DNA of 52,597 bases from an uncultured Pseudomonadales bacterium (lineage in GTDB: Bacteria > Patescibacteriota > Microgenomatia > UBA1400 > UBA12108): the NCBI GenBank assembly GCA_964349305.1, contig CAYGFS010000003.1, forward strand, positions 1 to 52,597, read 5' to 3'. Shown piece by piece: positions 113-52,373 of this stretch (position 1 is its first letter; every line of letters begins with the position of its first letter). The notes below the pieces were generated by a model that worked only from the letters and a program-made list of their open reading frames with translations, made no database searches and was not told the DNA's origin. The position numbers were made by a program, and so were the translations under genes.

Positions 113-553
113 TCAAATTTCGGCGGTTGTGTATACCGCGCTTAAAGTTTTCTCGAGTTTTTTACCGTCAGCTTGATACACACTGATTTTGATGGTGTTG
201 GCGCCTTTGACCAAAGTGATCTCCTGACTAAAGCTACCCAGATCGTTGGGGACAATCAGATACTCCGCTTTTTCTCCCAGAATGGCAATATAGGTACCGG
301 GGAGTGTTTTGCCGGTCAACGTCATTTTGGCTTCCTGACTTACCGAATTGTCGGGAGTAGTGAGATCGAGGAAAAGCTCCGTGTTTTGGGCGGTCTTATC
401 CGTGTTCTTGGATATGTTAGAGCCGAGCGAGGGTAATTTTATGTTTTGTAGCGCATGGCGGGCCCGCAATACTCCCCCTGTGACAACGAGTGCAAGAATA
501 AGACCTATAACAACGGCTACAGTGGCTTCTTTTTTGACTTTCATCTTGGGCAC
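113..553 (-). CDS. hypothetical membrane-anchored protein
   Basis: 146-aa ORF with a basic N-terminus, one TM helix (VAVVIGLILALVVTGGV) and a beta-rich soluble domain. No family recognised. Confidence 0.55.
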   Translation of the reverse strand: MPKMKVKKEATVAVVIGLILALVVTGGVLRARHALQNIKLPSLGSNISKNTDKTAQNTELFLDLTTPDNSVSQEAKMTLTGKTLPGTYIAILGEKAEYLIVPNDLGSFSQEITLVKGANTIKISVYQADGKKLEKTLSAVYTTAEI

Positions 554-622
554 AGTTTAACCGATCAAGGCCTACACGTAAAGAGTACAAACTGGAGCGC
601 TCGTGTGGTACTATAGTGACCT

Positions 623-1114
623 ATGGATATAAGTTACCTCGGCAAAGAAAGCTATAAAATAAAGGCTAAAGGCGGGTCGGTGAGCGCCAGTCCAGCGGGA
701 CTGACGATCGTACACAAAAGCGGCGGCGAGGATTTTGTCATTACCAATCCTGGAGAGTACGAGGTAGAGGGGATCTCCGTATTTGGATACAAGGCAGAAG
801 AGTCAAATGTTTATGTGGTCCAGTTTGACGATATTAGAGTGCTTTATCTAGGGAACCTAAGTAAACCACTGAGTGAAAAAAATATTACTGAGCTGGAAAA
901 TATTGATGTGGTTATTGTTTCGACAGAAACAATGCCAATCAAAGATATTGTGGAGGTAGTTGCGAAGCTAGAGCCATACTACGTTTTGCCATATGGAGGC
1001 ATGGTCGAGAAGTTTGTGGCAGCGTACGAGCACAGCAGTCGCAGTGTCAAAAACCTCCCACTGAGCAAACTTTCGCTCCCCGACGATCTGACAGAAGTGA
1101 TTGTGTTTGAGTAG
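623..1114 (+). CDS. short MBL-fold-like (Lactamase_B_3-like) protein, canonical metal ligands not evident
   Basis: 163-aa ORF. The layout ..PGEYEVEGISV..VLYLGNLS..IDVVIVSTE.. resembles short UPF0173/MBL-fold proteins, but no HxHxDH motif is present. TACTAT at 609..614 lies just upstream of the ATG. Confidence 0.4.
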   Translation: MDISYLGKESYKIKAKGGSVSASPAGLTIVHKSGGEDFVITNPGEYEVEGISVFGYKAEESNVYVVQFDDIRVLYLGNLSKPLSEKNITELENIDVVIVSTETMPIKDIVEVVAKLEPYYVLPYGGMVEKFVAAYEHSSRSVKNLPLSKLSLPDDLTEVIVFE

Positions 1115-3249: not shown

Positions 3250-4056
3250 ATGCTACCAATCTTAGTCAATTTGGGACCAGTCAAAATTTATTCCATGGGA
3301 GTGTGTCTGGTAATTGGTCTATTTCTCTCGTTGTATTTCTGGTGGAAAATGGGGAGAGATGAACATTTTGACGAAATTGCGTTGTTTGATGGATACTTTT
3401 TATCGCTAATAACATTTCTCTTTGCTGGCCGACTCGGATATGTATTAACACACGCGAGTGATCTGGGGACTTTTTATCGGTCGATTGCTTTACTTGCTTA
3501 CCCCGGGATTAATACCGTGGTGGGGATTGTGGCAGCCATAATATTTATTATTTTGTTCGCCAGGTCGCACGGATGGGATGAGTGGAAGGTAGCGGACTCG
3601 GTAGCCGTGGCATTGTCGATAGTCCTGATATTTGGCAGCTTGGGTGGACTGTTGAACGGTAACAATCCTGGCATGCCCGCGAGCTGGGGACTAATCTACC
3701 CTGGCCAAGAAACGCCGAGAGTACCGCTCGATATCCTGATGATTGCGTGGTCGGTGATTACTTTTGGGGTCGTGTCACGGGTGCGGAAAAATTTTCGCTT
3801 TTACTCGTGGTACAAAGGCGAATCCAGTATGGCACAAGAGGGACTAGCCAGTTTGATTTTTGTCATGCTGGTGGGGATTTATTATCTGGGAGCACCATGG
3901 ATCGACCAAAACGTCTGGAAGGTGGGGGTAATGCCTGGACAATTTCTTGTAGGCTTAATATGTGTGGGGGTGAGCGGACTTTTGATATACAAACGAGTGG
4001 GTAGACGGAACGAGGGCTTATGGAGTAAGCTAAAGAGTGTTATAAGGAGAAAGTAA
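3250..4056 (+). CDS. lgt: prolipoprotein diacylglyceryl transferase-like
   Basis: 268 aa and polytopic. The N-terminal ..GPVKIYSMGVCLVIGLF.. and the AGRLGY motif are typical of Lgt. lspA lies two genes downstream. Confidence 0.75.
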   Translation: MLPILVNLGPVKIYSMGVCLVIGLFLSLYFWWKMGRDEHFDEIALFDGYFLSLITFLFAGRLGYVLTHASDLGTFYRSIALLAYPGINTVVGIVAAIIFIILFARSHGWDEWKVADSVAVALSIVLIFGSLGGLLNGNNPGMPASWGLIYPGQETPRVPLDILMIAWSVITFGVVSRVRKNFRFYSWYKGESSMAQEGLASLIFVMLVGIYYLGAPWIDQNVWKVGVMPGQFLVGLICVGVSGLLIYKRVGRRNEGLWSKLKSVIRRK

Positions 4057-4058
4057 TT

Positions 4059-4415
4059 ATGCAGTATCCAAGAAATGTGTTGCAGTCGGTGTGGGATTAT
4101 TTAAAGAAACTGGAGGGGGACTTGCTTAAACGCAGGAGCTCCCTCGCCAAAGAAGATCCGTTTGCGGATACCAGTAGACTCAATGACAATGCCAGTGACG
4201 ATACTGAAGCCGCTGAGCAGTTTGGTCACGCCCAAGCCGCGACCCTGTCGGCAGAAACCAGCGACGCACTCAAACGAGTACAGCAAGCAATGAAGCGGGT
4301 GGATGATGGGAGCTATGGTAAATGTACCAATTGTGGGAACATGATAGACACCGACCGGCTCGGAATAGATCCGACGGCGGCGCTGTGTATGAACTGTGCC
4401 AAAAAGAAGAAATGA
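4059..4415 (+). CDS. DksA/TraR-family C4 zinc-finger protein
   Basis: 118 aa with C-terminal CTNCGNMIDTDRLGIDPTAALCMNC (CxxC-x17-CxxC). AAGGAG at 4044..4049 serves as the SD. Confidence 0.8.
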   Translation: MQYPRNVLQSVWDYLKKLEGDLLKRRSSLAKEDPFADTSRLNDNASDDTEAAEQFGHAQAATLSAETSDALKRVQQAMKRVDDGSYGKCTNCGNMIDTDRLGIDPTAALCMNCAKKKK

Positions 4416-4768
4416 ACATTTGGCTTTTGCTGTGCTTGGATTTGTTGTTAAAATATTTCGCGGTGCGCGGGGATTATGCGGTAATTAATCAGGGATTTTC
4501 TTTTGGGGTGTTAATGGGATCGGAATGGGTGTTTTGGATTATATTATCCGTATTATTTGTTTGGCTGTATCGACATAAAATGTGGATGATTTTGGCTGGG
4601 GGAGCAGCCAACGTGGTATCTCGGATTGTGTGGGGCGGGGTGGTGGATTACTGGAATTTCTTTGGTATTTTTCATAATAATTTGGCGGACTGGATGATTG
4701 TGGGCGGGATGGTGATGTACGTCTCGCAACGAAAAAATTATCCGTCGGTGTCGGACGAAAATTTGTGA
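4412..4768 (+). CDS. lspA: lipoprotein signal peptidase II
   Basis: The ORF track gives 4322..4768. I use the ATG at 4412 (MNIWLLLCLD..), which forms an ATGA overlap with the preceding stop. It has four TM segments plus the NQGFSFGV and VVDYWNF..NNLADW motifs typical of LspA. Confidence 0.75.
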   Translation: MNIWLLLCLDLLLKYFAVRGDYAVINQGFSFGVLMGSEWVFWIILSVLFVWLYRHKMWMILAGGAANVVSRIVWGGVVDYWNFFGIFHNNLADWMIVGGMVMYVSQRKNYPSVSDENL

Positions 4769-5687: not shown

Positions 5688-6822
5688 TGAGCATCGCGTC
5701 GCCAAAAGAGAAGAAGCGATAGTTTTCTTGGATTGCGATCGCGTAAGCTTTACCCAAAAGTGAATCGGCAAAATTGGTAAATGTTTCGGGTGAGTTGGGG
5801 TAGGTACAGAATGCTGAGACGAGCATGAGGAGGGTGGAGCCGGGGAGGTGAAAATTGGTCAGGAGCGCGTCAACTTGCTGAAACTGATAGGGAGGATAGA
5901 TAAATATGGAAGTGGAGTGGGAGCCGGGCTGCAGAAGTTCCGAACACTCGCCTATAGTCGTGCAAGGTTCGGAACTTTGTAAAGCGGCAGATTCCAAGGC
6001 GCGCATGGTGGTGGTGCCGATCGAGAGTAATTTTTGACCTGATTGCTTGAGGGTGCGAATATGAGCAGCAGTAGTATTGGAGATGGTGTAGGATTCGGCG
6101 TGCATGTGGTGATCCTCGATATTATTATCTTTGACGGGGAGAAAAGTACCCAGTCCGACGTTCAAGGTGAGCTCGTTCCAGCTATGATCTTGTTTGATCT
6201 GTTTGAGTAGTTCTGGCGTGAAGTGGAGACCGGCTGTGGGAGCGGCAGCAGAAAAGCCATATTTGGCGTAGATGGTCTGGTAATCGGCAGAGTTGCCCAG
6301 GAGCTTTTTGATGTAGGGAGGAGTGGGCATGGTTCCGAGCTGAGACAGGGTTGTGCGCAGCGCTGACTCTTCTTGGTTGAAGTGGATGGTACGTTCGATG
6401 TCTGAAACTGCGATGATTTTTCCTATGAGGACTGTCCTTTCGTCTGCCGACGAGCCCTTCTCGGCTTGCAGCCGGGAATTCCTTTTAAGGACAGTCCTCT
6501 CAAAAAAGATGACATCGCCGACCTTGAGTCCGGGACGAGCAATGCAGCGATAGCGAGAGTGGCCAAGGGGAACGGTCAGTAAGATCTCGACTTTGCCGCC
6601 GCTAGGCTTATGACCCAAGAGCCGAGCAGGAAAAACTTTGGTGTTGTTGGCGACCACAAAATAATCACGAGGTAGGAGAGCGGGCAGATCGTAGATATGA
6701 TGATGGGTAATACTCCCAGTCTGGCGATTGATCAGCATGAGCCGAGCTGAGTCGCGGGGTACGGCGGCTTCTTGGGCGATGGCGTCCCCTGGCAAGCGGT
6801 AACTGAATTGTGAAAGAAGCAT
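5680..6822 (-). CDS. queA: S-adenosylmethionine:tRNA ribosyltransferase-isomerase
   Basis: 380 aa. Shows YxLP..IAQ, GTTTMRALESAA and TNFHLPGSTLLMLVSAF, all characteristic of QueA. Confidence 0.95.
   Translation of the reverse strand: MLLSQFSYRLPGDAIAQEAAVPRDSARLMLINRQTGSITHHHIYDLPALLPRDYFVVANNTKVFPARLLGHKPSGGKVEILLTVPLGHSRYRCIARPGLKVGDVIFFERTVLKRNSRLQAEKGSSADERTVLIGKIIAVSDIERTIHFNQEESALRTTLSQLGTMPTPPYIKKLLGNSADYQTIYAKYGFSAAAPTAGLHFTPELLKQIKQDHSWNELTLNVGLGTFLPVKDNNIEDHHMHAESYTISNTTAAHIRTLKQSGQKLLSIGTTTMRALESAALQSSEPCTTIGECSELLQPGSHSTSIFIYPPYQFQQVDALLTNFHLPGSTLLMLVSAFCTYPNSPETFTNFADSLLGKAYAIAIQENYRFFSFGDAMLII
5929..5982. repeat. inverted pair of the same REP-like element inside queA
   Basis: The right copy at 5961..5982 (TGCAAGGTTCGGAACTTTGTAA) has a 20-nt core identical to the RAYT-locus copies. 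The left copy at 5929..5950 (CTGCAGAAGTTCCGAACACTCG) is inverted and diverged. Confidence 0.85.
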
Positions 6823-41108: not shown

Positions 41109-41891
41109 TTATGAGTAAAATCTAAGGTCTTTTTTCGTTTTTTCGGGAAAATACTTAAGTCCTACTCCATCTATTTTTGAGTTGTAAGTAATAAATTTGT
41201 TCGTACAAATTTCGTCGTACCGCCAATATTCACCTGGTTTTTTATCATACTCAAACATGTGATAGATAGGGTAGCAGTATAAATCTGCGATTTGAATTCC
41301 AATCGTTTTATCAGACTGGGAGAATAGGAGCTTCTCGATGATCAGAGGGCACTGATGCCAAATTCCATTATTGTTCCAACGCATTTTGTCATGTAAATCT
41401 GATAGTTCGTTGCCTAAAAAGTGCTTTTCTACCTGACCTTCTCGTGGGTCGATAATACAAATACCTAGTTGTTTAACTTGCTCGAGATATTTTTGGAATC
41501 TTTCCAGTAGAAACATATAGGCAACTTCGTATGGATTTTGGGAAGGATATTGTTGCCAGTAATCATGTTTATTTATCGCTACGGATATTATTTTTACAGG
41601 AATGGTTTGTAAAAAACCTGTGATTTGATCTTCTAGTTCGTTATATTTCTGTCTATCGTGTAGCTTGAGTGGTGAGTCAAATGCGATATCGGGGTTGGCA
41701 TATCGTAAAAAATTTGATTTAATCTCTATTTCTGGTTTTTGATAATAATTGAATTTGATATCACGGAATTGTTGCTCTATGGCGTGTACATCTGATTCGT
41801 CAATAATACATCCAGTGATAACCAAATGATTTTTACCGTTTTGAGAGAGTGATATAGTATCACCAGATTCATCAATATACATTAGGTGCAT
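41109..41891 (-). CDS. DUF3800-family protein
   Basis: N-terminal YIDESGD and C-terminal IQIADL are the two hallmark DUF3800 motifs. The gene is markedly AT-rich compared with its neighbours. TACAAT lies 6 nt before the ATG. Confidence 0.75.
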   Translation of the reverse strand: MHLMYIDESGDTISLSQNGKNHLVITGCIIDESDVHAIEQQFRDIKFNYYQKPEIEIKSNFLRYANPDIAFDSPLKLHDRQKYNELEDQITGFLQTIPVKIISVAINKHDYWQQYPSQNPYEVAYMFLLERFQKYLEQVKQLGICIIDPREGQVEKHFLGNELSDLHDKMRWNNNGIWHQCPLIIEKLLFSQSDKTIGIQIADLYCYPIYHMFEYDKKPGEYWRYDEICTNKFITYNSKIDGVGLKYFPEKTKKDLRFYS

Positions 41892-41913: not shown

Positions 41914-42015
41914 TTAGCGGATGAAAAATGGCGCGAACGACGTGGCGAGGAGCGCTAGGGTGGCGATAGCTGTGATGACGGTCCAGACCTTGCGCTGGCG
42001 TTTAGTCAGTGACAT
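41914..42015 (-). CDS. possible 33-aa hydrophobic peptide
   Basis: MSLTKRQRKVWTVITAIATLALLATSFAPFFIR. It overlaps the tyrS 3' end by 14 nt. No RBS was seen, so this is speculative. Confidence 0.2.
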   Translation of the reverse strand: MSLTKRQRKVWTVITAIATLALLATSFAPFFIR

Positions 42016-43162
42016 AGATTATTTTCCTAAATGTGCGTTTACCAAACTTTAGTGTACTCCCAGTGACTGGAGTTGTGGGGTCCTCGACGCGAACGCCGTC
42101 GATTTCTACCCCGCCCTGCTCGAGGGTGCGTTTAATGTCAGAGTTGCTGACGCCAAGATCGGCTGATTTAAGGGCTTCAAGGATGGGTGTTCCCTCTTTA
42201 ACACTCAGTTCGGGAGTAGTGTCTGGGGCGGTTTTGGTTTGGACAAAATCGTCGTAATACTTTTGTCCATTAGTCGCACCCGTGTCGCCGTGGAGCTGGC
42301 GAGTGATGTCGTAGGCCAAGCGCTTTTTGTTTTCGATAGGTTTGCTGGTGTCGAGGGATTTAATTTCGTCCATGGGGATATCGGTGAGTAATTCGTAGTA
42401 AGTAGTAATCATGCTGTCAGCCATAGCCATGATTTTGGGGTACATAACTTCGGGTTTGTCAGTGAGCCAAATGCAGTTGCCCATGGATTTGCTCATTTGT
42501 TTGCCGTCGGTACCGTTGATCATGGGAGTGGTGAGAACGAACTTTTCGCGGCCACTCATTTTCTTTTGGAGTTCCCGACCGATGAGCATATTAAACTCTT
42601 GGTCGGTGCCACCAATCTCGAGATCGACGTCCATGACGACCGAGTCGTAGCCTTGGAGGAGTGGGTACATGGTTTCGTGGTACCAAACGACGTCGCCCTT
42701 AGCGATCCGCCGAGTAAAACTCTCGCGCTTGAAAAGCTGGGTAGCACTGATGTTAGAGCCAATTTTAATAATGTCTTTTAGAGTAAGTTTGGTGAGCCAG
42801 TCACCATTTTGCCTAATCTTGATGAGATCAAAATCGACAATTTTACTGACCTGTTCTTTCCAGGTTTGGATATTGGCGTCAATTTCCTCCTGGGTAATTA
42901 GCTTGCGACCAGTGTCACGCTCGGAGGGGTCGCCAGCCAGGACGGTACCAGTGCCGAAGAGGAAAATGACTTCGTGACCTGCGCGGGCAAAGTCCATGAG
43001 CTTGCGGAAGCCAATAGTGTGGCCGAGGTGGAGATCTTTGAAGGTGGGATCAAATCCCTGGTAGAGACGGATTTTTTTGCCTGCAATGAGTTTTTCGAGA
43101 CCCTCTTTGGTAGGGAGAATTTTGGCTACACGACGAGTAAGTAAATCATTGTTTGTTTTCAT
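42002..43162 (-). CDS. tyrS: tyrosyl-tRNA synthetase
   Basis: HIGH motif (HLGH), KMSKS-like motif (KQMSKS), and a C-terminal S4 domain. The ATG at 43162 is preferred over the TTG at 43183 because AGGAG lies 5 nt upstream. Confidence 0.92.
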   Translation of the reverse strand: MKTNNDLLTRRVAKILPTKEGLEKLIAGKKIRLYQGFDPTFKDLHLGHTIGFRKLMDFARAGHEVIFLFGTGTVLAGDPSERDTGRKLITQEEIDANIQTWKEQVSKIVDFDLIKIRQNGDWLTKLTLKDIIKIGSNISATQLFKRESFTRRIAKGDVVWYHETMYPLLQGYDSVVMDVDLEIGGTDQEFNMLIGRELQKKMSGREKFVLTTPMINGTDGKQMSKSMGNCIWLTDKPEVMYPKIMAMADSMITTYYELLTDIPMDEIKSLDTSKPIENKKRLAYDITRQLHGDTGATNGQKYYDDFVQTKTAPDTTPELSVKEGTPILEALKSADLGVSNSDIKRTLEQGGVEIDGVRVEDPTTPVTGSTLKFGKRTFRKIIYVTD

Positions 43163-43179
43163 AAGACTCCTGTATTGTA

Positions 43180-44238
43180 TCAAATATTTTTAATCCAGTG
43201 ATCGAGCACTACTCGTACCCTCTCAATGCTATTAAGACTCACCCACTCGCCTTCTGCATGGAGGTTCTTCCCTCTGGGTCCAAAAACTATGGCTGGAATG
43301 CCGAGCGCAGTACAATGCCTTGCGTCAGAGCTACCGTGTTCAAAGCCAGAAATCGGGTTAATGACATTATTTTTTAATGATTTCACAAAAGATTTGCGTA
43401 ATTTACTCTCTTTGGGACAATTAATAGTTGACTCTAGCTTGGCTACTTCAACTGTGCAATTTACAAATATTTTTTCAATATCAGAAATTATTTGCCTTGG
43501 ATTATCCTGTGGATTCCACCTGATATCACACCACAAAGAGCCATCGCCTGGTATCTGATTAATCGCTTCTCCACTATTTATCAGTGAGAAATTGAATGTC
43601 GTGATTCTTGTCTCTTTTAGGGGGCTCGGATTAGCTTCTCTAAATTTGGTAAGGTTAGATGTTAACAACTCTAGTGCACTTTTTCCCTCCCATGGGCGTG
43701 AACCATGACAAGCCGCGCCCGAGGCGGTGATTTTGATCTGAATAATACCTTTAGCTTGTACAATCATCTTTTCACCAGTTGGTTCGAGAAATATGCCACC
43801 TTTTAGATTTGACATCCGAGAAAGGATTGCCTTGGTAGATTCTCCACCTACTTCTTCATCAGCCACTAACATAAAGGTAATGTGTTTGGTTCTAGCAAAA
43901 TTATTCCATGCAGTAGTATTGGCAAGCATAATTGCACAGCTACTTTTGGTATCGGCGGATCCCCTACCCCAAACTTTGCCTCTCTCGATTCTGGGGATGA
44001 ATTGATTGGGATTCCCTGGGACTACGTCGAGATGAGAGTTAATTAGCCACTTAGTTTTATCTAGGTCAAGCTCTCCCCAGATCAGAATTGGCCGTTTTGC
44101 GACCATGATTGTCTTTGGCTTAACTCCTTGTTCTTCGAGAATATTTTTTGATATTTTAATTATTTCTGTACAAGTCTTACGATCATCAGTGATAGAGTGG
44201 ATGTGAATAAGTTGTTTTAAGATCTTTATTTTATTCAT
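43180..44238 (-). CDS. M20-family metallopeptidase/deacylase (ArgE/DapE-like)
   Basis: ..INSHLDVVPG.., GRGSADTKS, LVADEEVGG, and GSSDARH. The ATG at 44238 has AAGGAG 7 nt upstream (track start 44274). Confidence 0.8.
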   Translation of the reverse strand: MNKIKILKQLIHIHSITDDRKTCTEIIKISKNILEEQGVKPKTIMVAKRPILIWGELDLDKTKWLINSHLDVVPGNPNQFIPRIERGKVWGRGSADTKSSCAIMLANTTAWNNFARTKHITFMLVADEEVGGESTKAILSRMSNLKGGIFLEPTGEKMIVQAKGIIQIKITASGAACHGSRPWEGKSALELLTSNLTKFREANPSPLKETRITTFNFSLINSGEAINQIPGDGSLWCDIRWNPQDNPRQIISDIEKIFVNCTVEVAKLESTINCPKESKLRKSFVKSLKNNVINPISGFEHGSSDARHCTALGIPAIVFGPRGKNLHAEGEWVSLNSIERVRVVLDHWIKNI

Positions 44239-44255
44239 ATAATATCTCCTTTTAT

Positions 44256-45296
44256 TTAGTATTCGCTTCCACAAAACCCACTATTAGGAAGCATGCTTTT
44301 TGGCTTTAGCGTATGAATAATTCGTTCAAACTCAGAACTGATTTCTTCAAGCTCTCTTTTCAATTTGAGTGGGACTATGTCGCTGATTTGACCAGGAGCC
44401 AGGAGTGCCCTATTACCATGGTTGTCCCACCCTGATCCAATTGATCCGATCAAAATTACTGGTTTGCCACTCTCTCCACTTACTCTATCGGTTCCACTTA
44501 TTACGACTTGTGGGTTGCTTGCAAACATGCCGATTAGTGGCATGTTTTGGTCAGTTGCTTCAACAACAAATAACGAGCTCCCAAGCCATCTTCTAGTTTC
44601 GTTGGTTAAGATAACGGCATCTTGCCCATCATCTGATGGGACGATTAGATTAAACGGTTTTTTCTGGATTATTTTCAGTCTGCGAATTTCACCTTTTGTT
44701 GACCTACCATTTAGAGCATCGCTAATTCTTCCTTTAATGGTAGAGTTGTCCTTGATGTCGCTTGATGCCAGAAGAAAAGGTTCATTCCTGAGTGGTTCCC
44801 CATGTGCAAATAGTGGTGCAATGGCGTGAGGAGTTAGTTCTAGTACTCCTAGACAGATTTTTTGAGTAGCTATCCCTGAAGGAATCCCTTCAAATTTATC
44901 TGCAGCACGAACTTCGGCTACTAAAGGGATATTCCCATGATTATCTATATGATGCAGAGCCGCAGATAACATGACTTGTTTACCTATGCCGTTACCTTGA
45001 TCTATCGATGCTCCACGGCCTAGTTCCCAGCTCCCATTTTGTTTGACAAGTGCTGCTGTTGCAACGAGTTTCCCATCTTTTGTAGCGAACCATGGTAGAA
45101 CTGAACCATCTCTAATGTCACTAATTAGTTTTTCCTCATTATTCGAGATTCCATGTTGAACATACATTTTTTCTAGCAGGTTAATCATTAGAGTGGCTGA
45201 TACACCAGGATCAAATCTATTTGGTGGAATAATTTTGACACCAGAACATTTATTTTCTGCGGCAGATAGGCTCGCTACTATTTTTTCTCGGTTCAT
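44256..45296 (-). CDS. GNAT-like acetyltransferase domain protein with unknown C-terminal domain
   Basis: The N-terminal half carries GNGIGKQVMLSAALHHID, which looks like a GNAT acetyl-CoA-binding (Q/R-x-x-G-x-G/A) motif. No family was recognised for the C-terminal ~170 aa. Confidence 0.5.
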   Translation of the reverse strand: MNREKIVASLSAAENKCSGVKIIPPNRFDPGVSATLMINLLEKMYVQHGISNNEEKLISDIRDGSVLPWFATKDGKLVATAALVKQNGSWELGRGASIDQGNGIGKQVMLSAALHHIDNHGNIPLVAEVRAADKFEGIPSGIATQKICLGVLELTPHAIAPLFAHGEPLRNEPFLLASSDIKDNSTIKGRISDALNGRSTKGEIRRLKIIQKKPFNLIVPSDDGQDAVILTNETRRWLGSSLFVVEATDQNMPLIGMFASNPQVVISGTDRVSGESGKPVILIGSIGSGWDNHGNRALLAPGQISDIVPLKLKRELEEISSEFERIIHTLKPKSMLPNSGFCGSEY

Positions 45297-45655
45297 ATTT
45301 TCCTTTTTTCAACAAATAAACCCCTGCCTACGCCCAAATTAGGAAAACCTAAATTAGGAATAGACAGGGGCCTGCAAGTGTAGCGATACCAACCCTGTGG
45401 TGTTATTTGGCTATAAAAAATCTCGCTCACGCGAGATCTGAAATAACCAAGGATAACCTTGTTTGTTCAGATGCTCTGTTTCTTTGTGACACATCTTAGT
45501 CTGATTACGGAGACAACCGTATCTGATTTTGTCAGATCTGCTTAGGAGAGTAAATTTCAATTAAAGTTTTGGATGTCTTGCAGCAAACGACATCTCTCTG
45601 ATTACCCACTTTAACTTACTAAGGCTCCTTCGACGCTTTCCTATTAACTTGTGGG
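45297..45655 (-). promoter_or_regulatory. long structured 5' leader of the GNAT-M20-tyrS operon (T-box-like Stem I motifs; possibly an sRNA)
   Basis: On the minus strand: AGUA (45620..45617), AGAGAG bulge (45599..45594), hairpin GAUGUC-GUUUGCUGCAA-GACAUC (45594..45572), then two terminator-like hairpins. Confidence 0.45.
45413..45439 (-). terminator. intrinsic terminator inside the leader
   Basis: The minus strand reads AUCUCGC-GUGA-GCGAGAU followed by UUUUUUAU. Confidence 0.7.
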
Positions 45656-45658
45656 GAG

Positions 45659-45688
45659 TTTATATCATGAAAGTATCGCGAGTGTCAA
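45659..45688 (-). promoter_or_regulatory. sigma70-type promoter
   Basis: The minus strand reads TTGACA, then 17-18 nt, then TGATATAAA (an extended -10). Confidence 0.6.
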
Positions 45689-45694
45689 TGCCTA

Positions 45695-46078
45695 CTATAG
45701 GCTAGTATGGCCGGCAAGGTGCGTATGAAGCAGAGTGTGATCAAGTTTGTGAGCTGATTTTTCGAGATCGTGAGTGGTTGTGGCTTTCATCCATTTATCC
45801 ATCTTTTTGTAAAATTGTTCTTTGGTGGGGAGGTGGGAAAATCGCTTAATCAGCTCTTCACGAAGATTAAGAATGTCCTGTTTGGTGGCCATGATTGAGT
45901 TAGTTTTTTTGATTGCGATATCTGTGAGTCGACTTAAAGCAATCTGATTATCTATTTTTGTTAGCCAGATATTTGCTTCATCTTGAACAATTTTTTTAAC
46001 ATCTTGTTTTGATGTAAAATTGTCATCGAGGTATTTGAATAGCGGAGTCCAATCCATTTTTTGAGGTAAAGTGGTCAT
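45695..46078 (-). CDS. hypothetical coiled-coil protein
   Basis: 127-aa ORF, helical and charged. No family recognised. Confidence 0.45.
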   Translation of the reverse strand: MTTLPQKMDWTPLFKYLDDNFTSKQDVKKIVQDEANIWLTKIDNQIALSRLTDIAIKKTNSIMATKQDILNLREELIKRFSHLPTKEQFYKKMDKWMKATTTHDLEKSAHKLDHTLLHTHLAGHTSL

Positions 46079-48710: not shown

Positions 48711-50579
48711 CTAAGATTTTGAGTCGATATTTAATTTGTCTTTGAGGGTTTTGAGGATGAGGTCTTTTTCAACATTGATAGCAGGAGTGTCTTGAGCCCA
48801 AGTGATTCTAAGTAGATAATTATTTTTTCCACTAATTTCGCTCGGTGTGCCAACTGACTCCATCTTATCCCAAGTATTTGGAAGACTAGATATACAGGTT
48901 ACTATATCAAAATATTTTATTCCGTTGGGTGCTAACAAAGAAAGATCTCGGGAAGTGGGGTGAGAAAATTCTGAGACTATCCCAGTGTATGATTTGGTTA
49001 GTGGCATAAGGGCGTCAGTGACGAGCGTGTAGCTGTTGGCTGCGACAGTACCCACTAGCGCATCGCTCACAATGATTTCGTTTTTTTGGTTGATTTGATA
49101 GCTTTCGATACCGAGGGAGCTGAGAAGTGTTGAGAGAGAGTCTGCTACTCCAGAATGCGACGGGAACATGACGGTGAGCAGACGACCCTCAAGATATTTG
49201 TCCGCTGACTGACGGAAAACTTTGCCGATTTCAAAAACGGCGGTGTTTGTTTGTTTGTGTTTTTTGTAGGTAGAGTGAACGTGAGTTAGACCACCCAGGA
49301 GATCGTGGCGCAGCGCGTTTTGATCGCTGGAGAGAGCATTGGCCAGCACGACTTCGTCCTTTTGGCCGGTTGCGGCAGTCAGCGAGCTGGTAATGTGTTC
49401 GTGTGCTCCTTGCGCTACCATGAGGTCACGCAGGCGATCTTCAAGGCGGTAGATAGGGGGCGTGATATCACGGGGAACAGGAGTACTCAAGGAGATTTGG
49501 GGGATACCAGTGTAGTTGTGGATGCGCAAAATGTCCGAGATGAGATCGTCTTCCACCTCGACGTCGGTGCGAAAATAGGGTATCTCCAGTGTCAGCTCAC
49601 TATCATTTTCCTCAGTGATCACGTATTCGAGGGATTTGAGGATTTTTTTGGCGGTTGAGAGTGGGATGTCCATGCCGGAGAGGAGGTGGAGACGACTCAA
49701 GCGCAAAGTCATAGTTTTGGGTACAACAGGAGTGGGATAATAATCACCGTTCGCGTAATAGGTCCCGCCGGCGATTTCCAGGATCAAATCTGTTGCTCGT
49801 GCAAGTGCTAGGTCGATGGCGCGGGGGTCAAGGAATTTGTCGTTGCGACTGACCGATTCGTTTAAAATCTTGAGCTTGCGCGATACGGCGCGGATGGTGC
49901 GGGAGTCATAGCTGCCGGAATCGAGCACGATGTCGGTAGTACTATCTGTGACACCGGTGTTTTTACCACCGACAATCCCGCCGATCACGGTGACTTCACC
50001 GCCTGAGGTGAGAACAAACGCATCGCTATTTAGTTTGACTTCAGTACCGAGCAAGGTGGTGAGTTTTTCGCCGTTTTTGGCCAGGCGAATAGTAATATCT
50101 CGTCCTTTTAACTTGGCGATATCTTGGGTGTGCAATGGTTGGCCGTACTCGATCATGACAAGATTGGTGATGTCGACGATGTTGTTGATGGACTCCATAC
50201 CATAAGTGGTTAAGCGATCGATGATCCACTGGGGAGATTTGCCCACTTTGATGCCCTTGAAAACACGGGTCTGGAAACGTTTGACGGCGGGCGTGTCGAC
50301 GGTGACTTTGATATGCTCGGCAGCAGGAAGTGACTTACCCGGTTTCGTCGAGAACTTTGGGAGTTTGAGAGGGATGTCTTCAAAAGCTGCTAGGTCACGA
50401 GCGCAACCAATCATAGAAAGCCAATCGGAGCGATCCATACGGTGCTCTAGGTCGAGGACATTTTTGTCGTCCAGTGGTTTGTCTAACATAAGACCGAGCT
50501 GAGTAAAACTAGCCGCTACTTCTTTAGCCGACTTGCTGGTTTCGACGTAGTCTTTGAGCCACACGAGAGGAATTTTCAT
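48711..50579 (-). CDS. pheT: phenylalanyl-tRNA synthetase beta subunit (short form)
   Basis: Starts MKIPLVWLKDYV. A B3/B4 domain is present (NNIVDITNLVMIEYGQPLHTQD), followed by B5 and a C-terminal FDX-ACB-like domain. At 622 aa it has no room for a B2 OB-fold. Confidence 0.9.
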   Translation of the reverse strand: MKIPLVWLKDYVETSKSAKEVAASFTQLGLMLDKPLDDKNVLDLEHRMDRSDWLSMIGCARDLAAFEDIPLKLPKFSTKPGKSLPAAEHIKVTVDTPAVKRFQTRVFKGIKVGKSPQWIIDRLTTYGMESINNIVDITNLVMIEYGQPLHTQDIAKLKGRDITIRLAKNGEKLTTLLGTEVKLNSDAFVLTSGGEVTVIGGIVGGKNTGVTDSTTDIVLDSGSYDSRTIRAVSRKLKILNESVSRNDKFLDPRAIDLALARATDLILEIAGGTYYANGDYYPTPVVPKTMTLRLSRLHLLSGMDIPLSTAKKILKSLEYVITEENDSELTLEIPYFRTDVEVEDDLISDILRIHNYTGIPQISLSTPVPRDITPPIYRLEDRLRDLMVAQGAHEHITSSLTAATGQKDEVVLANALSSDQNALRHDLLGGLTHVHSTYKKHKQTNTAVFEIGKVFRQSADKYLEGRLLTVMFPSHSGVADSLSTLLSSLGIESYQINQKNEIIVSDALVGTVAANSYTLVTDALMPLTKSYTGIVSEFSHPTSRDLSLLAPNGIKYFDIVTCISSLPNTWDKMESVGTPSEISGKNNYLLRITWAQDTPAINVEKDLILKTLKDKLNIDSKS

Positions 50580-52318
50580 AGGTAGACTATTTCACCTCCG
50601 TAAAGCTTGCGGATGTCCGTGATGCCGTATTTAGACATGACGAGGCGGTCGAGGCCAAGGCCGAATGAATAACCCGTGTAGATTTCCGGATCGATTCCGC
50701 ACGATTTATAGCAGTTGTAATGGGTCATGCCAGATCCCAGTGTTTCAATCCAACCACGATATTTACATACCTGGCAGCCTTTGCCGCCACAAAATCTACA
50801 TTGCATATCGACTCCCATGCCGGGACTCACCTCAGGATAATATTTGTAGCGGAAGCGGAGTTTGACGTCGGCGCCAAATAAAAACTGATGTAATCCCGTG
50901 AGCATGTCTTTAAGGTGGCCGATGGTAACTCCCTTGTCTACCACAAATCCCTGGTATTGGTAGAAGAAAGCGCTGTTGGTGGAGTTGGTAGTTTCATTTC
51001 GATAACATTTTCCAGGAACAACGACGCGGAGAGGTGGTTTGTAGTTGGAAAGCACCCGCGTTTGGATCGAGGAGGTGTGTGTACGAAGAAGTAAATTTGG
51101 TTCTTGGATAAACAGTGAGTCCTGTAGATCGGTGGCGGGGTGGCCCTCAGGGAGGTTGAGACGGCGGAAGTTATACTCGACGTCCTCAATCTCTGGTCCT
51201 TCGCCAATAGAAAAGCCTTGGTAGCGGAAAAATTCGTTCATTTCGCGGATAATGACGGTGGTGGGGTGGAGGCGGCCGATCGGGTGAGGGGTACCAGGGA
51301 CAGTTAGATCTAGACCACTGATTTGAGACGAGGCGGCAAGCTCGCTTTTTTTGTTGGCGATTTGCTCTTCTTGGGATTTTTTGAGTTCGTTGAGCAGTGG
51401 GCCGAACTTTTGTTTGTCCTGCAGGGCCAGGCCCTGCAGGCTCTTGAGTAGCTGGGTAGTACTCCCCTTTTTGCCAAGGTATTTGAGATATAGTGAGTCT
51501 AGATCAGTTTGATTTTTAATCGATTCGAGATCAGCTGTGAACTGCGGACCAATTTCAGATATTTTTTCTGGAATATTTACAGCACTACGATAATTCGAAT
51601 TATCGTAGTGTTTGGCCATTGGTTGCGTGGTCGTGTAGTGGACAAGTGTGGAATTGTTTGTGTGTTCGATGTTGGAAACGGTAATGGGCCAAATATCATC
51701 GCCGGTCTTGAGCTGGGTACCGCCGTCGGGGATATGATAATCCTGACCAATGCTCAAAACACGGAGTTTTTTGCTGGTGGGGAGCTTGGCGGGGAGCCAA
51801 TTGGACAGCTTTTTAAGTTCTTCGAGAGTCACAAATTGAGTTTTGATCTCGGGTTTAGCGGTGACAAGCTTGGTGAGCTCTGTGTTTAACTGGTCTAGAT
51901 CTAAATTTTGTATTCCTTCGAATTCGATAAACAGCTTTTTGCCAATGCCGTGCATCCCGCGAATGGGAATAAGTTGTGGATAGATAGTCCGCGTGACCAG
52001 ATCTACCAGGTGGCCGGCAGTGTGCCACTGCATATGTTTGAGGCGAAGAGGCCAGTCGATGGTAAGCTCGACGCTTTGACCGACAGTGAAATCACCCTTC
52101 ATGGTGCCTAAGTGTTTGATTTGCCCACCGTTGTATTCGACAGACTTGACGCTTAACTCACCCGAGGCTGATTTAATTGTGCCCTTGTCTGACTGTTGGC
52201 CGCCACCCTGGGGGTAAAAGATGGTTTGGTCGAGGATTGCGTAGGTATTCCCTACTGCAATCACCTTAGCCGTAGCTTTGGATTGATACGAATTGGTTAA
52301 ATAAAGTGCTTCGGTCAT
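50576..52318 (-). CDS. pheS: phenylalanyl-tRNA synthetase alpha subunit fused to an N-terminal AlaX-like domain
   Basis: The C-terminal ~340 aa is a full PheS (LGKKGS.., HPTTVIIREM, class II core GFGLGLDRL). The N-terminal ~240 aa matches the AlaX-M pattern (LYLTNSY.., ILDQTIFYPQGGGQQSDKG, HTAGH). Confidence 0.9.
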   Translation of the reverse strand: MTEALYLTNSYQSKATAKVIAVGNTYAILDQTIFYPQGGGQQSDKGTIKSASGELSVKSVEYNGGQIKHLGTMKGDFTVGQSVELTIDWPLRLKHMQWHTAGHLVDLVTRTIYPQLIPIRGMHGIGKKLFIEFEGIQNLDLDQLNTELTKLVTAKPEIKTQFVTLEELKKLSNWLPAKLPTSKKLRVLSIGQDYHIPDGGTQLKTGDDIWPITVSNIEHTNNSTLVHYTTTQPMAKHYDNSNYRSAVNIPEKISEIGPQFTADLESIKNQTDLDSLYLKYLGKKGSTTQLLKSLQGLALQDKQKFGPLLNELKKSQEEQIANKKSELAASSQISGLDLTVPGTPHPIGRLHPTTVIIREMNEFFRYQGFSIGEGPEIEDVEYNFRRLNLPEGHPATDLQDSLFIQEPNLLLRTHTSSIQTRVLSNYKPPLRVVVPGKCYRNETTNSTNSAFFYQYQGFVVDKGVTIGHLKDMLTGLHQFLFGADVKLRFRYKYYPEVSPGMGVDMQCRFCGGKGCQVCKYRGWIETLGSGMTHYNCYKSCGIDPEIYTGYSFGLGLDRLVMSKYGITDIRKLYGGEIVYL

Positions 52319-52349: not shown

Positions 52350-52373
52350 AAAAAACCCCGCTTGTGGGCGGGG
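52350..52373 (-). terminator. intrinsic terminator in the pheST leader
   Basis: The minus strand reads CCCCGC-CCACAA-GCGGGG followed by UUUUUUG, about 30 nt before the pheS ATG. Confidence 0.7.

Follow-up and report, generated by a model that had tools for sequence, protein, structure and literature searches.

The minus-strand leader at positions 45688 to 45297 of contig CAYGFS010000003.1 (the window, the whole stretch of 52,597 nucleotides [nt] analyzed here) is predicted to be a tRNA-Tyr T-box riboswitch in an uncultured groundwater bacterium of the candidate phyla radiation (CPR), Microgenomates/Woesebacteria type. The leader, whose coordinates are all read on the minus strand, precedes a three-gene operon encoding a GNAT-like protein (gene 1), an M20 deacylase, and tyrosyl-tRNA synthetase (TyrRS; gene tyrS). 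It probably controls this operon by attenuating transcription in response to tRNA-Tyr, and it carries a conserved insert whose terminator-like hairpin, T1, would probably act ahead of the tRNA-regulated terminator, T2 (Table 1).

The Rfam T-box family RF00230 aligned over its full model to positions 45642 to 45446 with 72.5 bits (E values: region, 8.7e-16; whole 52.6-kb window, 7.6e-14). A scan at the gathering threshold reported nothing for the window leader, and homologous leaders of the same operon scored at or above that threshold (L043, 103.5 bits; L041, 100.9; L007, 94.4; L011, 94.2). The Rfam check proposed in an earlier reading of this DNA made without database searches (the sequence-only reading) thus gave a full-length alignment with an E value of ~1e-14 and homologues at 94 to 104 bits. 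The alignment had high posterior probabilities for the kink-turn (K-turn), S-turn, AG bulge, distal loop, Stem II, Stem IIA/B with the F-box, and Stem III. The insert, in contrast, forced the antiterminator positions of the model onto the small hairpin CAAGG-UUAU-CCUUG (hairpin H). The leader folded better than shuffled sequences (z = -4.6; 0 of 100 shuffles equal). A tandem (double) T-box was rejected, as the window contains one RF00230 match and no second Stem I, and a match to a bglG ribonucleic antiterminator-like element was dismissed at 27 bits versus a gathering score of 80.

The Stem I motifs, the F-box-like CCGUAA segment, and the hairpins listed in the sequence-only reading were all found on the minus strand where it had placed them. 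It had left the specifier as either UUU-A or UAC. The leaders collected from relatives all have a Stem I in which UAC and one further base abut the closure of the stem on its 5' side. These four nucleotides keep their place while the distance from GAA to the codon ranges from 1 to 3 nt among leaders, and the base after UAC is a pyrimidine in every T-box-carrying leader except for an A in the short-Stem-I leaders L042 and L010. Since UAC lies directly 5' of the closure in every homologue, we take the specifier to be UAC and discard UUU. The conserved UAC, together with a tyrS product scoring 291 bits on TIGR00234, also bears out the suggested link to tRNA-Tyr sensing. Downstream of Stem I, a IIA/B pseudoknot could form between the loop GUCU (45514 to 45511) and AGAC (45502 to 45499), a pairing read from the sequence. 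Stem III is paired in 100% of the alignment cells in 13 leaders, with compensatory changes in six of its eight pairs, and is followed by GAA in 12 of the 13.

The canonical T-box/antiterminator sequence, which the sequence-only reading could not find, is present at 45398 to 45364, in a variant form and 70 nt further downstream than expected; it had been missed because the 70-nt insert sits in the middle of the sensor. Every relative has a T-box sequence immediately before its last hairpin, and in most this is the canonical GGGUGGUACC. The window sequence aligns with the canonical GGGUGGUACCGC of its homologues. The variant GGGUUGGUAUC occurs in the window and in L009, L023, L025, and L026, which have the 8-nt bulge UUGGUAUC in common, whereas UGGUACC, the canonical form, occupies the aligned positions in relatives. 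When the 5' part was folded without constraints, helix A1, a bulge of 7 to 8 nt, and helix A2 formed in nearly all leaders. The UGGU is complementary to the A73-CCA end of the tRNA-Tyr gene found in the relative L046 (the window's own tRNA-Tyr lies outside the window). In T2, 10 of 19 pairs showed compensatory changes in an unedited MAFFT alignment. The folds of A1 and the bulge, the covariation of T2, and the A-CCA end of the L046 tRNA-Tyr indicate that the canonical switch is intact.

The 5' strand of T2 overlaps the 3' strand of A1 (45369 to 45364), and therefore T2 is the predicted tRNA-regulated terminator. The hairpin at 45439 to 45413, described in the sequence-only reading as a canonical terminator, belongs instead to the conserved insert. 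The two tandem 11-nt palindromes described in the second hairpin are likewise not separate elements but the two strands of the upper part of T2, in which 45358 to 45354 pair with 45337 to 45333 and 45352 to 45348 pair with 45343 to 45339. A search of Rfam with positions 45300 to 45404 alone gave no T-box match and returned generic long-hairpin matches (microRNA precursors; bglG-cis-reg, 25 bits).

Typing of the 23 distinct upstream leaders, the window included, showed that the region between Stem III and the T-box sequence takes three forms. Six leaders (type a: L005, L019, L020, L041, L043, and L045) have a short purine-rich linker, as in standard T-boxes, and three (type b: L010, L011, and L037, which have the most divergent gene 1 proteins) have a plain hairpin without a U-tract. 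The other 14 (type c: the window, L001, L004, L007, L008, L009, L018, L021, L022, L023, L040, L042, L046, and L047) carry an insert of 70 to 100 nt with T1. These insert-bearing leaders are divergent, their gene 1 proteins being only 40 to 51% identical.

T1 resembles an intrinsic terminator. It is paired in 98% of the alignment cells, and 6 of its 10 pairs show compensatory changes. The stem sequence changes freely, and the U-run that follows it has 5 or 6 residues in 13 of the 14 leaders and 4 in L047. The energy of the full hairpin ranges from -11 to -17 kcal/mol across leaders. Perfect-stem GC hairpins followed by U5 occur at only three sites between called open reading frames (ORFs) in the window, T1 among them, which argues that T1 is not compositional noise. 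Three further ideas about the insert were tried and set aside. Local alignment against shuffles, as for AAGGUUUACC of L008 versus AAGGUGGUACC, gave P values of 0.03 to 0.9, mostly not significant, for a degenerate copy of the T-box sequence, an idea retained as no more than a lead. A UGGU at 45451 to 45448 was rejected as a first tRNA acceptor site, being specific to the window and not conserved in relatives, and a leader-peptide ORF over T1 (UUG at 45450) was rejected for want of a conserved start codon in the leaders.

The insert has, as judged from covariation and predicted folds, two mutually exclusive structures. Each leader was folded at two lengths, up to T1 and with the next 13 to 20 nt. 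Up to T1, all clades gave, in order, Stem III or its competitor, H with GAA(A)/UUUC as its closing pairs, and T1. With the additional nucleotides, the new sequence paired with the loop and 3' strand of H, which become the 5' strand of a long hairpin, L; T1 sits at the tip of L, and Stem III stays intact. L was the minimum free energy (MFE) fold in 13 of the 14 leaders, in which it was 6 to 12 kcal/mol more stable than the H fold; the exception was L023, which bears an extra hairpin. When the regions were set only by conserved anchors, the L duplex exceeded shuffles at P < 0.05 in 12 of 14 leaders. In L, 14 of 20 pairs had changes on both sides.

Both folds were scored on a block-wise alignment of 13 leaders, A3, in which the sequences are reproduced and N padding made MAFFT keep the columns. 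The late fold (Stem III, L, and T1) was paired in 88.7% of the cells, with 26 pairs changed on both sides and a score of 0.572 (slid partners, ≤0.116; 0 of 500 shuffles). The early fold, which consists of the alternative pairing P-alt, H, and the T1 core, was paired in 84.8%, with 15 pairs changed on both sides and a score of 0.50 (slid partners, ≤0.097; 0 of 500 shuffles). The 5' strand of H, its 3' strand, and the 3' strand of L change jointly (C/G/C in the window and U/A/U in L009). In addition, the 4 to 5 nt preceding the T1 core covary with the 3' tail of Stem III: A3 columns 28 to 31 with 67 to 70, which are anchored by the invariant GAA and UUUC and not by pairing, have 4, 3, 4, and 5 sequences changed on both sides. 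In P-alt as a whole (columns 28 to 35 with 63 to 70), four extension pairs are changed on both sides. Compensatory changes were thus found on homologous leaders in Stem III, in the insert folds, in T1, and in T2, as the sequence-only reading had proposed to check.

At the point where T1 would act, Stem III with the full T1 stem had the lowest energy in all 13 leaders; P-alt was worse by 1 to 2 kcal/mol in the window's clade and by 5 to 7 kcal/mol in the L001 clade. In the window's clade, P-alt is the MFE fold until the U-tract emerges. A 5-bp GC core of T1 survives in either fold.

These observations are consistent with the following order of events. As homology and covariation show, Stem I presents the codon UAC, and the antiterminator at 45398 to 45364 competes with T2. 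Uncharged tRNA-Tyr, by analogy with characterized T-boxes (PMC7583486), would bind UAC and the Stem I platform; its ACCA end, by the same analogy, would pair with UGGU, so that the antiterminator is held and RNA polymerase passes T2. As the insert is synthesized, H and T1 would form, and T1 may serve as a first, tRNA-independent, leaky terminator or as a pause before tRNA sensing. At this stage, H would keep the future L strand sequestered, and the base of T1 would compete with P-alt, which borrows the 3' strand of Stem III. Past T1, the next 13 nt may invade H, with AUAA docking on the exposed UUAU loop as a toehold. L would then zip up with T1 at its tip and so free Stem III and its GAA purines; 4 to 6 nt later, the T-box sequence would emerge beside Stem III for the charge-sensing decision at T2.

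Several points weigh against this model. The window leader, at 72.5 bits, falls short of the RF00230 gathering score of 93; its A2 helix is weak, with 3 to 4 pairs and an A·C mismatch; and its bulge is the 8-nt UUGGUAUC instead of UGGNACC. Low-depth contigs of relatives from RNA-labelled libraries, some of which have ambiguous labels, span T1, so that T1 is at most leaky, if these contigs represent RNA at all. The T1 core hairpin is not dissolved by any conserved structure, so that strong constitutive termination in front of tyrS, probably the organism's only copy, would carry a high cost. The covariation figures also have to be read with the making of A3 in mind: it was curated with pairing in view, with the columns of Stem III and the P-alt extension alone fixed independently, and its 13 sequences amount to about seven independent lineages.

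For T1 itself, we rank a constitutive but leaky terminator or pause above a regulated terminator, because the predicted energies make Stem III with full T1 minimal in every leader and because the GC core persists. The covariation between Stem III and the pre-T1 segment keeps the regulated alternative alive. In that alternative, a two-checkpoint T-box, P-alt would be the antiterminator of T1, and some signal would make the choice of P-alt or Stem III ahead of the reading of the tRNA 3' end at T2; docking of tRNA on Stem I/II, the speed of the polymerase, or a protein are candidates for this signal. The columns anchored by GAA and UUUC and the standing of P-alt in the window's clade, where it is the MFE fold until the U-tract is out and within 1 to 2 kcal/mol afterwards, speak for it. 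We nevertheless consider it unlikely: P-alt removes only the lowest four T1 pairs, and every leader retains the GC core beside the U-tract; in the L001-type clade, the Stem III fold is favored by 5 to 7 kcal/mol; and the insert has no conserved tRNA-complementary element, the UGGU at 45451 to 45448 being window specific. The logic would also be awkward, as Stem III is required for the later sensing step. A rather improbable reading makes L a lineage-specific appended stem with T1 merely its tip, involved neither in termination nor in pausing, which would modulate tRNA binding or be a target of RNase III. Other T-boxes are known to carry appended stems (PMC9177973 and PMC7913692), the outgroup leaders L010, L011, and L037 have at this site a plain hairpin with no U-tract, and L and T2 are long, near-continuous duplexes of the type cut by RNase III in the Staphylococcus aureus met leader (PMC7913692). 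However, the placement of U5 or U6 (four U's in L047) right after a GC-rich stem of varying stem and loop sequence, two to three of these U's falling in an internal loop of L and so not needed for its structure, and the rarity of such hairpin-U5 sites (three intergenic ones in 52.6 kb) are hard to reconcile with a purely structural role.

The sequence-only reading had also suggested a free-standing small RNA of ~220 nt. An RNA of ~235 nt running from Stem I to T1 and ending at 45415 could act in trans, for instance as a tRNA-Tyr decoy, with the downstream T-box module being secondary; a strong promoter, a full tRNA-binding domain, and then a terminator-like hairpin are what such an RNA would have. 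As the main product it is very unlikely, since the leader continues without a second promoter into an antiterminator/terminator pair and the operon, L covaries with sequence downstream of T1 in a way that is sensible only for read-through transcripts, and leaders without T1 regulate the same operon. The suggestion survives as a by-product of putative termination at T1. That the leader is not a T-box at all, but a different riboswitch or a chance resemblance, is hardly credible. The subthreshold Rfam score of the window and the lack of a T-box match in the isolated 3' part would fit this idea, but the E value is about 1e-14 over the full model, homologues score at least at the gathering level, and no T-box element is missing, the specifier and UGGU being conserved like the others. 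A different riboswitch, as the sequence-only reading had allowed, is thus not supported. The attenuating tRNA-Tyr T-box with a leaky T1 can also be extended: the insert may be a second decision point inside the discriminator, at which T1 and then toehold-driven conversion of H to L rebuild the sensor only in transcripts that have passed T1. Such a two-step, timed (kinetic-proofreading-like) T-box, possibly derived from a duplicated expression platform, is a speculative idea that we regard as improbable.

Table 1. Features of the tRNA-Tyr T-box leader and its operon in the window (minus strand throughout; MFE, minimum free energy)
Feature	Position	Details	Basis
Promoter, sigma-70 type	45659-45688	-35 TTGACA 45688-45683; 18-nt spacer; extended -10 TGATATAAA 45667-45659	Read from sequence
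Stem I	45540-45636		Rfam alignment, MFE fold
K-turn	45636-45625 with 45548-45540	GC/GA motif	Rfam alignment, MFE fold
GAAGGAG	45631-45625		Sequence
Specifier loop (S-turn)	45620-45617; 45558-45556	AGUA; GAA	Rfam alignment, MFE fold
Helix in Stem I	45614-45608 / 45567-45561	UUAAAGU / ACUUUAA	Sequence
AG bulge	45599-45594	AGAGAG	Rfam alignment, MFE fold
Distal hairpin and loop	45594-45572	GAUGUC/GACAUC	Rfam alignment, MFE fold
Stem I 3' strand	45558-45545	GAAAUUUACUCUCC	Sequence
Specifier (Tyr)	45550-45552	UAC, then U and stem closure CUCC	Position conserved in leaders; tyrS downstream
Stem II	45521-45537	AUCUGA/UCAGAU	Rfam alignment, folds
Stem IIA/B hairpin	45499-45520	ACGG-UUGUCU-CCGU	Rfam alignment, fold
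F-box	45510-45505	CCGUAA	Sequence, Rfam alignment
Stem III	45469-45496	Purine flanks UAAG (5') and GAA (3')	Covariation
Lineage-specific insert	45399-45468	From Stem III to the T-box sequence	Comparison of 23 leaders
Early hairpin H	45448-45461	CAAGG-UUAU-CCUUG	Same place in all 14 insert-carrying leaders; compensatory changes
UUUC and pre-T1 AGAUC	45435-45443	Pairs with GAA and the Stem III 3' tail (45472-45466; P-alt) or with the U-tract (T1 base)	
T1, intrinsic-terminator-like hairpin	45415-45439	AGAUCUCGC-GUGA-GCGAGAUUU and U6 (45420-45415)	Covariation, energies
L 3' strand	45402-45414	AUAGCCAA-AUAAC; pairs with 45457-45453 and 45450-45443, enclosing T1	
Antiterminator	45364-45398	A1 ACAGGG 45398-45393 with CCCUGU 45369-45364; bulge; weak A2	Homologue alignment, folds
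T-box sequence	45395-45383	GGGUUGGUAUCGC; UGGU 45391-45388 inside the 8-nt bulge UUGGUAUC	
T2 hairpin, ~24 bp	45311-45373	Hairpin 45373-45318; U-rich tail UUUAUUUGUU 45320-45311	Folds, covariation
Ribosome-binding site and gene 1 start	45294-45306	AAAGGA; ATG (45296)	Sequence
Regulated operon	42002-45296	Three genes	Same gene order in relatives

The sigma70 promoter described earlier was confirmed: 18 nt separate TTGACA from TGATATAAA, and the related leaders collected (>15) show no variation of TTGACA at the homologous position. Transcription is predicted from the promoter sequence to start near 45652. A generic promoter scan made no call here, and the promoter was overlooked because the last base of the -10 hexamer is A. 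Just upstream of the promoter lies an ORF of 127 amino acids (aa) (45695 to 46078, minus strand), with no family match and no terminator before the promoter; several relatives have a small ORF at the same site (100 to 114 aa in L001 and L005).

Gene 1 (44256 to 45296, minus strand; 346 aa) had no significant Pfam or NCBIfam match. The N-terminal third is weakly GNAT/FeeM-like, with subthreshold Acetyltransf_1 matches in 20 and FeeM matches in 16 of 34 family members, and the GNAT label given to it earlier holds only in this weak sense. Gene 2 (43180 to 44274, minus strand) encodes an M20 ArgE/DapE-type deacylase, with which the gene 1 family is always paired, and tyrS (42002 to 43183, minus strand) is the third gene of the operon. 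It is followed by a DUF3800 gene (41109 to 41891, minus strand) and then recG. In the relatives examined, tyrS adjoins recG, and the DUF3800 gene looks like a recent insertion. The neighborhoods of relatives include an additional pyridoxal phosphate-dependent decarboxylase or EamA transporter, and prephenate dehydratase is adjacent. Gene 1, the M20 gene, and these neighbors suggest the metabolism of tyrosine or aromatic amino acid derivatives under Tyr control. Elsewhere in the window, a perfect terminator-like hairpin, CCCCGC-CCACAA-GCGGGG with U6 (52350 to 52373, minus strand), precedes the start of the gene at 50576 to 52318 by ~30 nt and could be the terminator of a gene past the window edge or an attenuator.

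The gene 1 protein family comprises 34 clusters, all metagenomic. A direct search of reference genomes for close gene 1 relatives found none; matches came only with the family alignment, in Candidatus Woesebacteria GW2011_GWB1_39_10 and in one metagenome-assembled genome of the Microgenomates group. These matches place the window in a CPR bacterium. Most relatives examined share the order PBP1A (on the opposite strand), a gap of ~350 nt, gene 1, M20, tyrS, and recG. In L046 (269 to 356), a tRNA-Tyr (GTA) gene encoding A73 and CCA begins directly after the U-tract of the T-box terminator, ahead of gene 1. From this arrangement, the sensed tRNA would be produced only upon read-through, along with TyrRS. 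Four leaders, L042 (about 2640 to 2720), L010, L011, and L037, have an ultrashort Stem I without the AG bulge/distal loop platform and retain terminator-type expression platforms; in L042 and L010, the UAC specifier is followed by the usual purine. A short Stem I is otherwise known from translational actinobacterial T-boxes.

The leader shares most of its parts with canonical Stem II-type transcriptional T-boxes, such as that of Bacillus subtilis tyrS (RF00230): Stem I with K-turn, S-turn, UAC, AG bulge, and distal loop; Stem II, the IIA/B pseudoknot with the F-box, and Stem III with purine flanks; and a UGGN bulge between A1 and A2, a competing intrinsic terminator, and control of tyrS. It differs from them in the bulge, UUGGUAUC and not UGGNACC, in a pyrimidine in place of a purine after the specifier, in the unusual length of T2 (~24 bp), in its CPR host, and above all in the 70-nt insert with a terminator-like hairpin that splits Stem III from A1. 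In solved T-box complexes, Stem III and the antiterminator form one compact discriminator (PMC7583486). Here they do not adjoin directly, 70 nt (45468 to 45399) lying between them, and only the L fold could restore their proximity. Because this adjacency is missing, we call the leader a variant; as far as its sequence tells, the riboswitch class is known and the architecture new, the role of T1 being putative.

Clade-specific conserved stem-loops added to a standard T-box are also found in staphylococci: the glyS leader has an appended stem, Sa, inside helix A2 (PMC9177973), and the S. aureus metI leader has appended L I-III and a long, 23-bp terminator stem that is cut by RNase III (PMC7913692). 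Unlike these additions, the CPR insert lies between Stem III and A1, and neither a GC hairpin with a U-tract nor two covarying folds are described for the glyS and metI insertions in the consulted parts of the two reports. Tandem (double or triple) T-boxes, such as that of B. subtilis thrZ, also have more than one terminator in series in one leader, but they repeat whole units including Stem I (PMC9413887, citing Vitreschak 2008), whereas the leader described here has one tRNA-binding domain and a first terminator without a UGGN sensor.

The nearest analogues in architecture came from a genome pattern scan for T6, 10 to 40 nt, and AGGGTGGTAC. The matches listed were mostly random and included no further CPR examples. 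Among them were Firmicutes leaders with a single Stem I and, after it, the T-box sequence and terminator twice in succession, 35 to 45 nt apart: L051 (Clostridium; about 5700 to 5980, minus strand), L142 (Clostridium; about 330 to 630, minus strand), L082 (Bacillus cereus; about 4200 to 4510, minus strand), and L148 (about 3330 to 3640, plus strand). L051, L142, and L082 have a single Rfam T-box match each, and L148 has none at the gathering score. In L051, the second platform copy also repeats the Stem III 3' strand, and, as read from the sequence, a helix of the Stem III 5' strand with this second copy could loop out the first terminator, as L does here. Both platforms of the Firmicutes leaders keep an intact GGGUGGUACC, whereas the first module of the CPR leaders has no UGG and its T-box resemblance is not significant. 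In the literature, we found no account of a terminator-bearing insertion between Stem III and A1 (Vitreschak 2008 being known through PMC9413887 only) and no publication dealing with T-boxes of CPR bacteria.

In textbooks, T-box riboswitches exemplify RNAs that sense which tRNA is present and whether it is charged. A 70-nt cassette with a terminator-like hairpin and two covarying folds that splits the discriminator implies that assembly of this sensor across a long insertion is possible, and the variant offers a system for studying the order and timing of cotranscriptional folding in a tRNA sensor. Such leaders score below the Rfam threshold and are therefore missed by routine annotation. Their recognition here would extend T-box regulation to CPR (Woesebacteria/Microgenomates) genomes.

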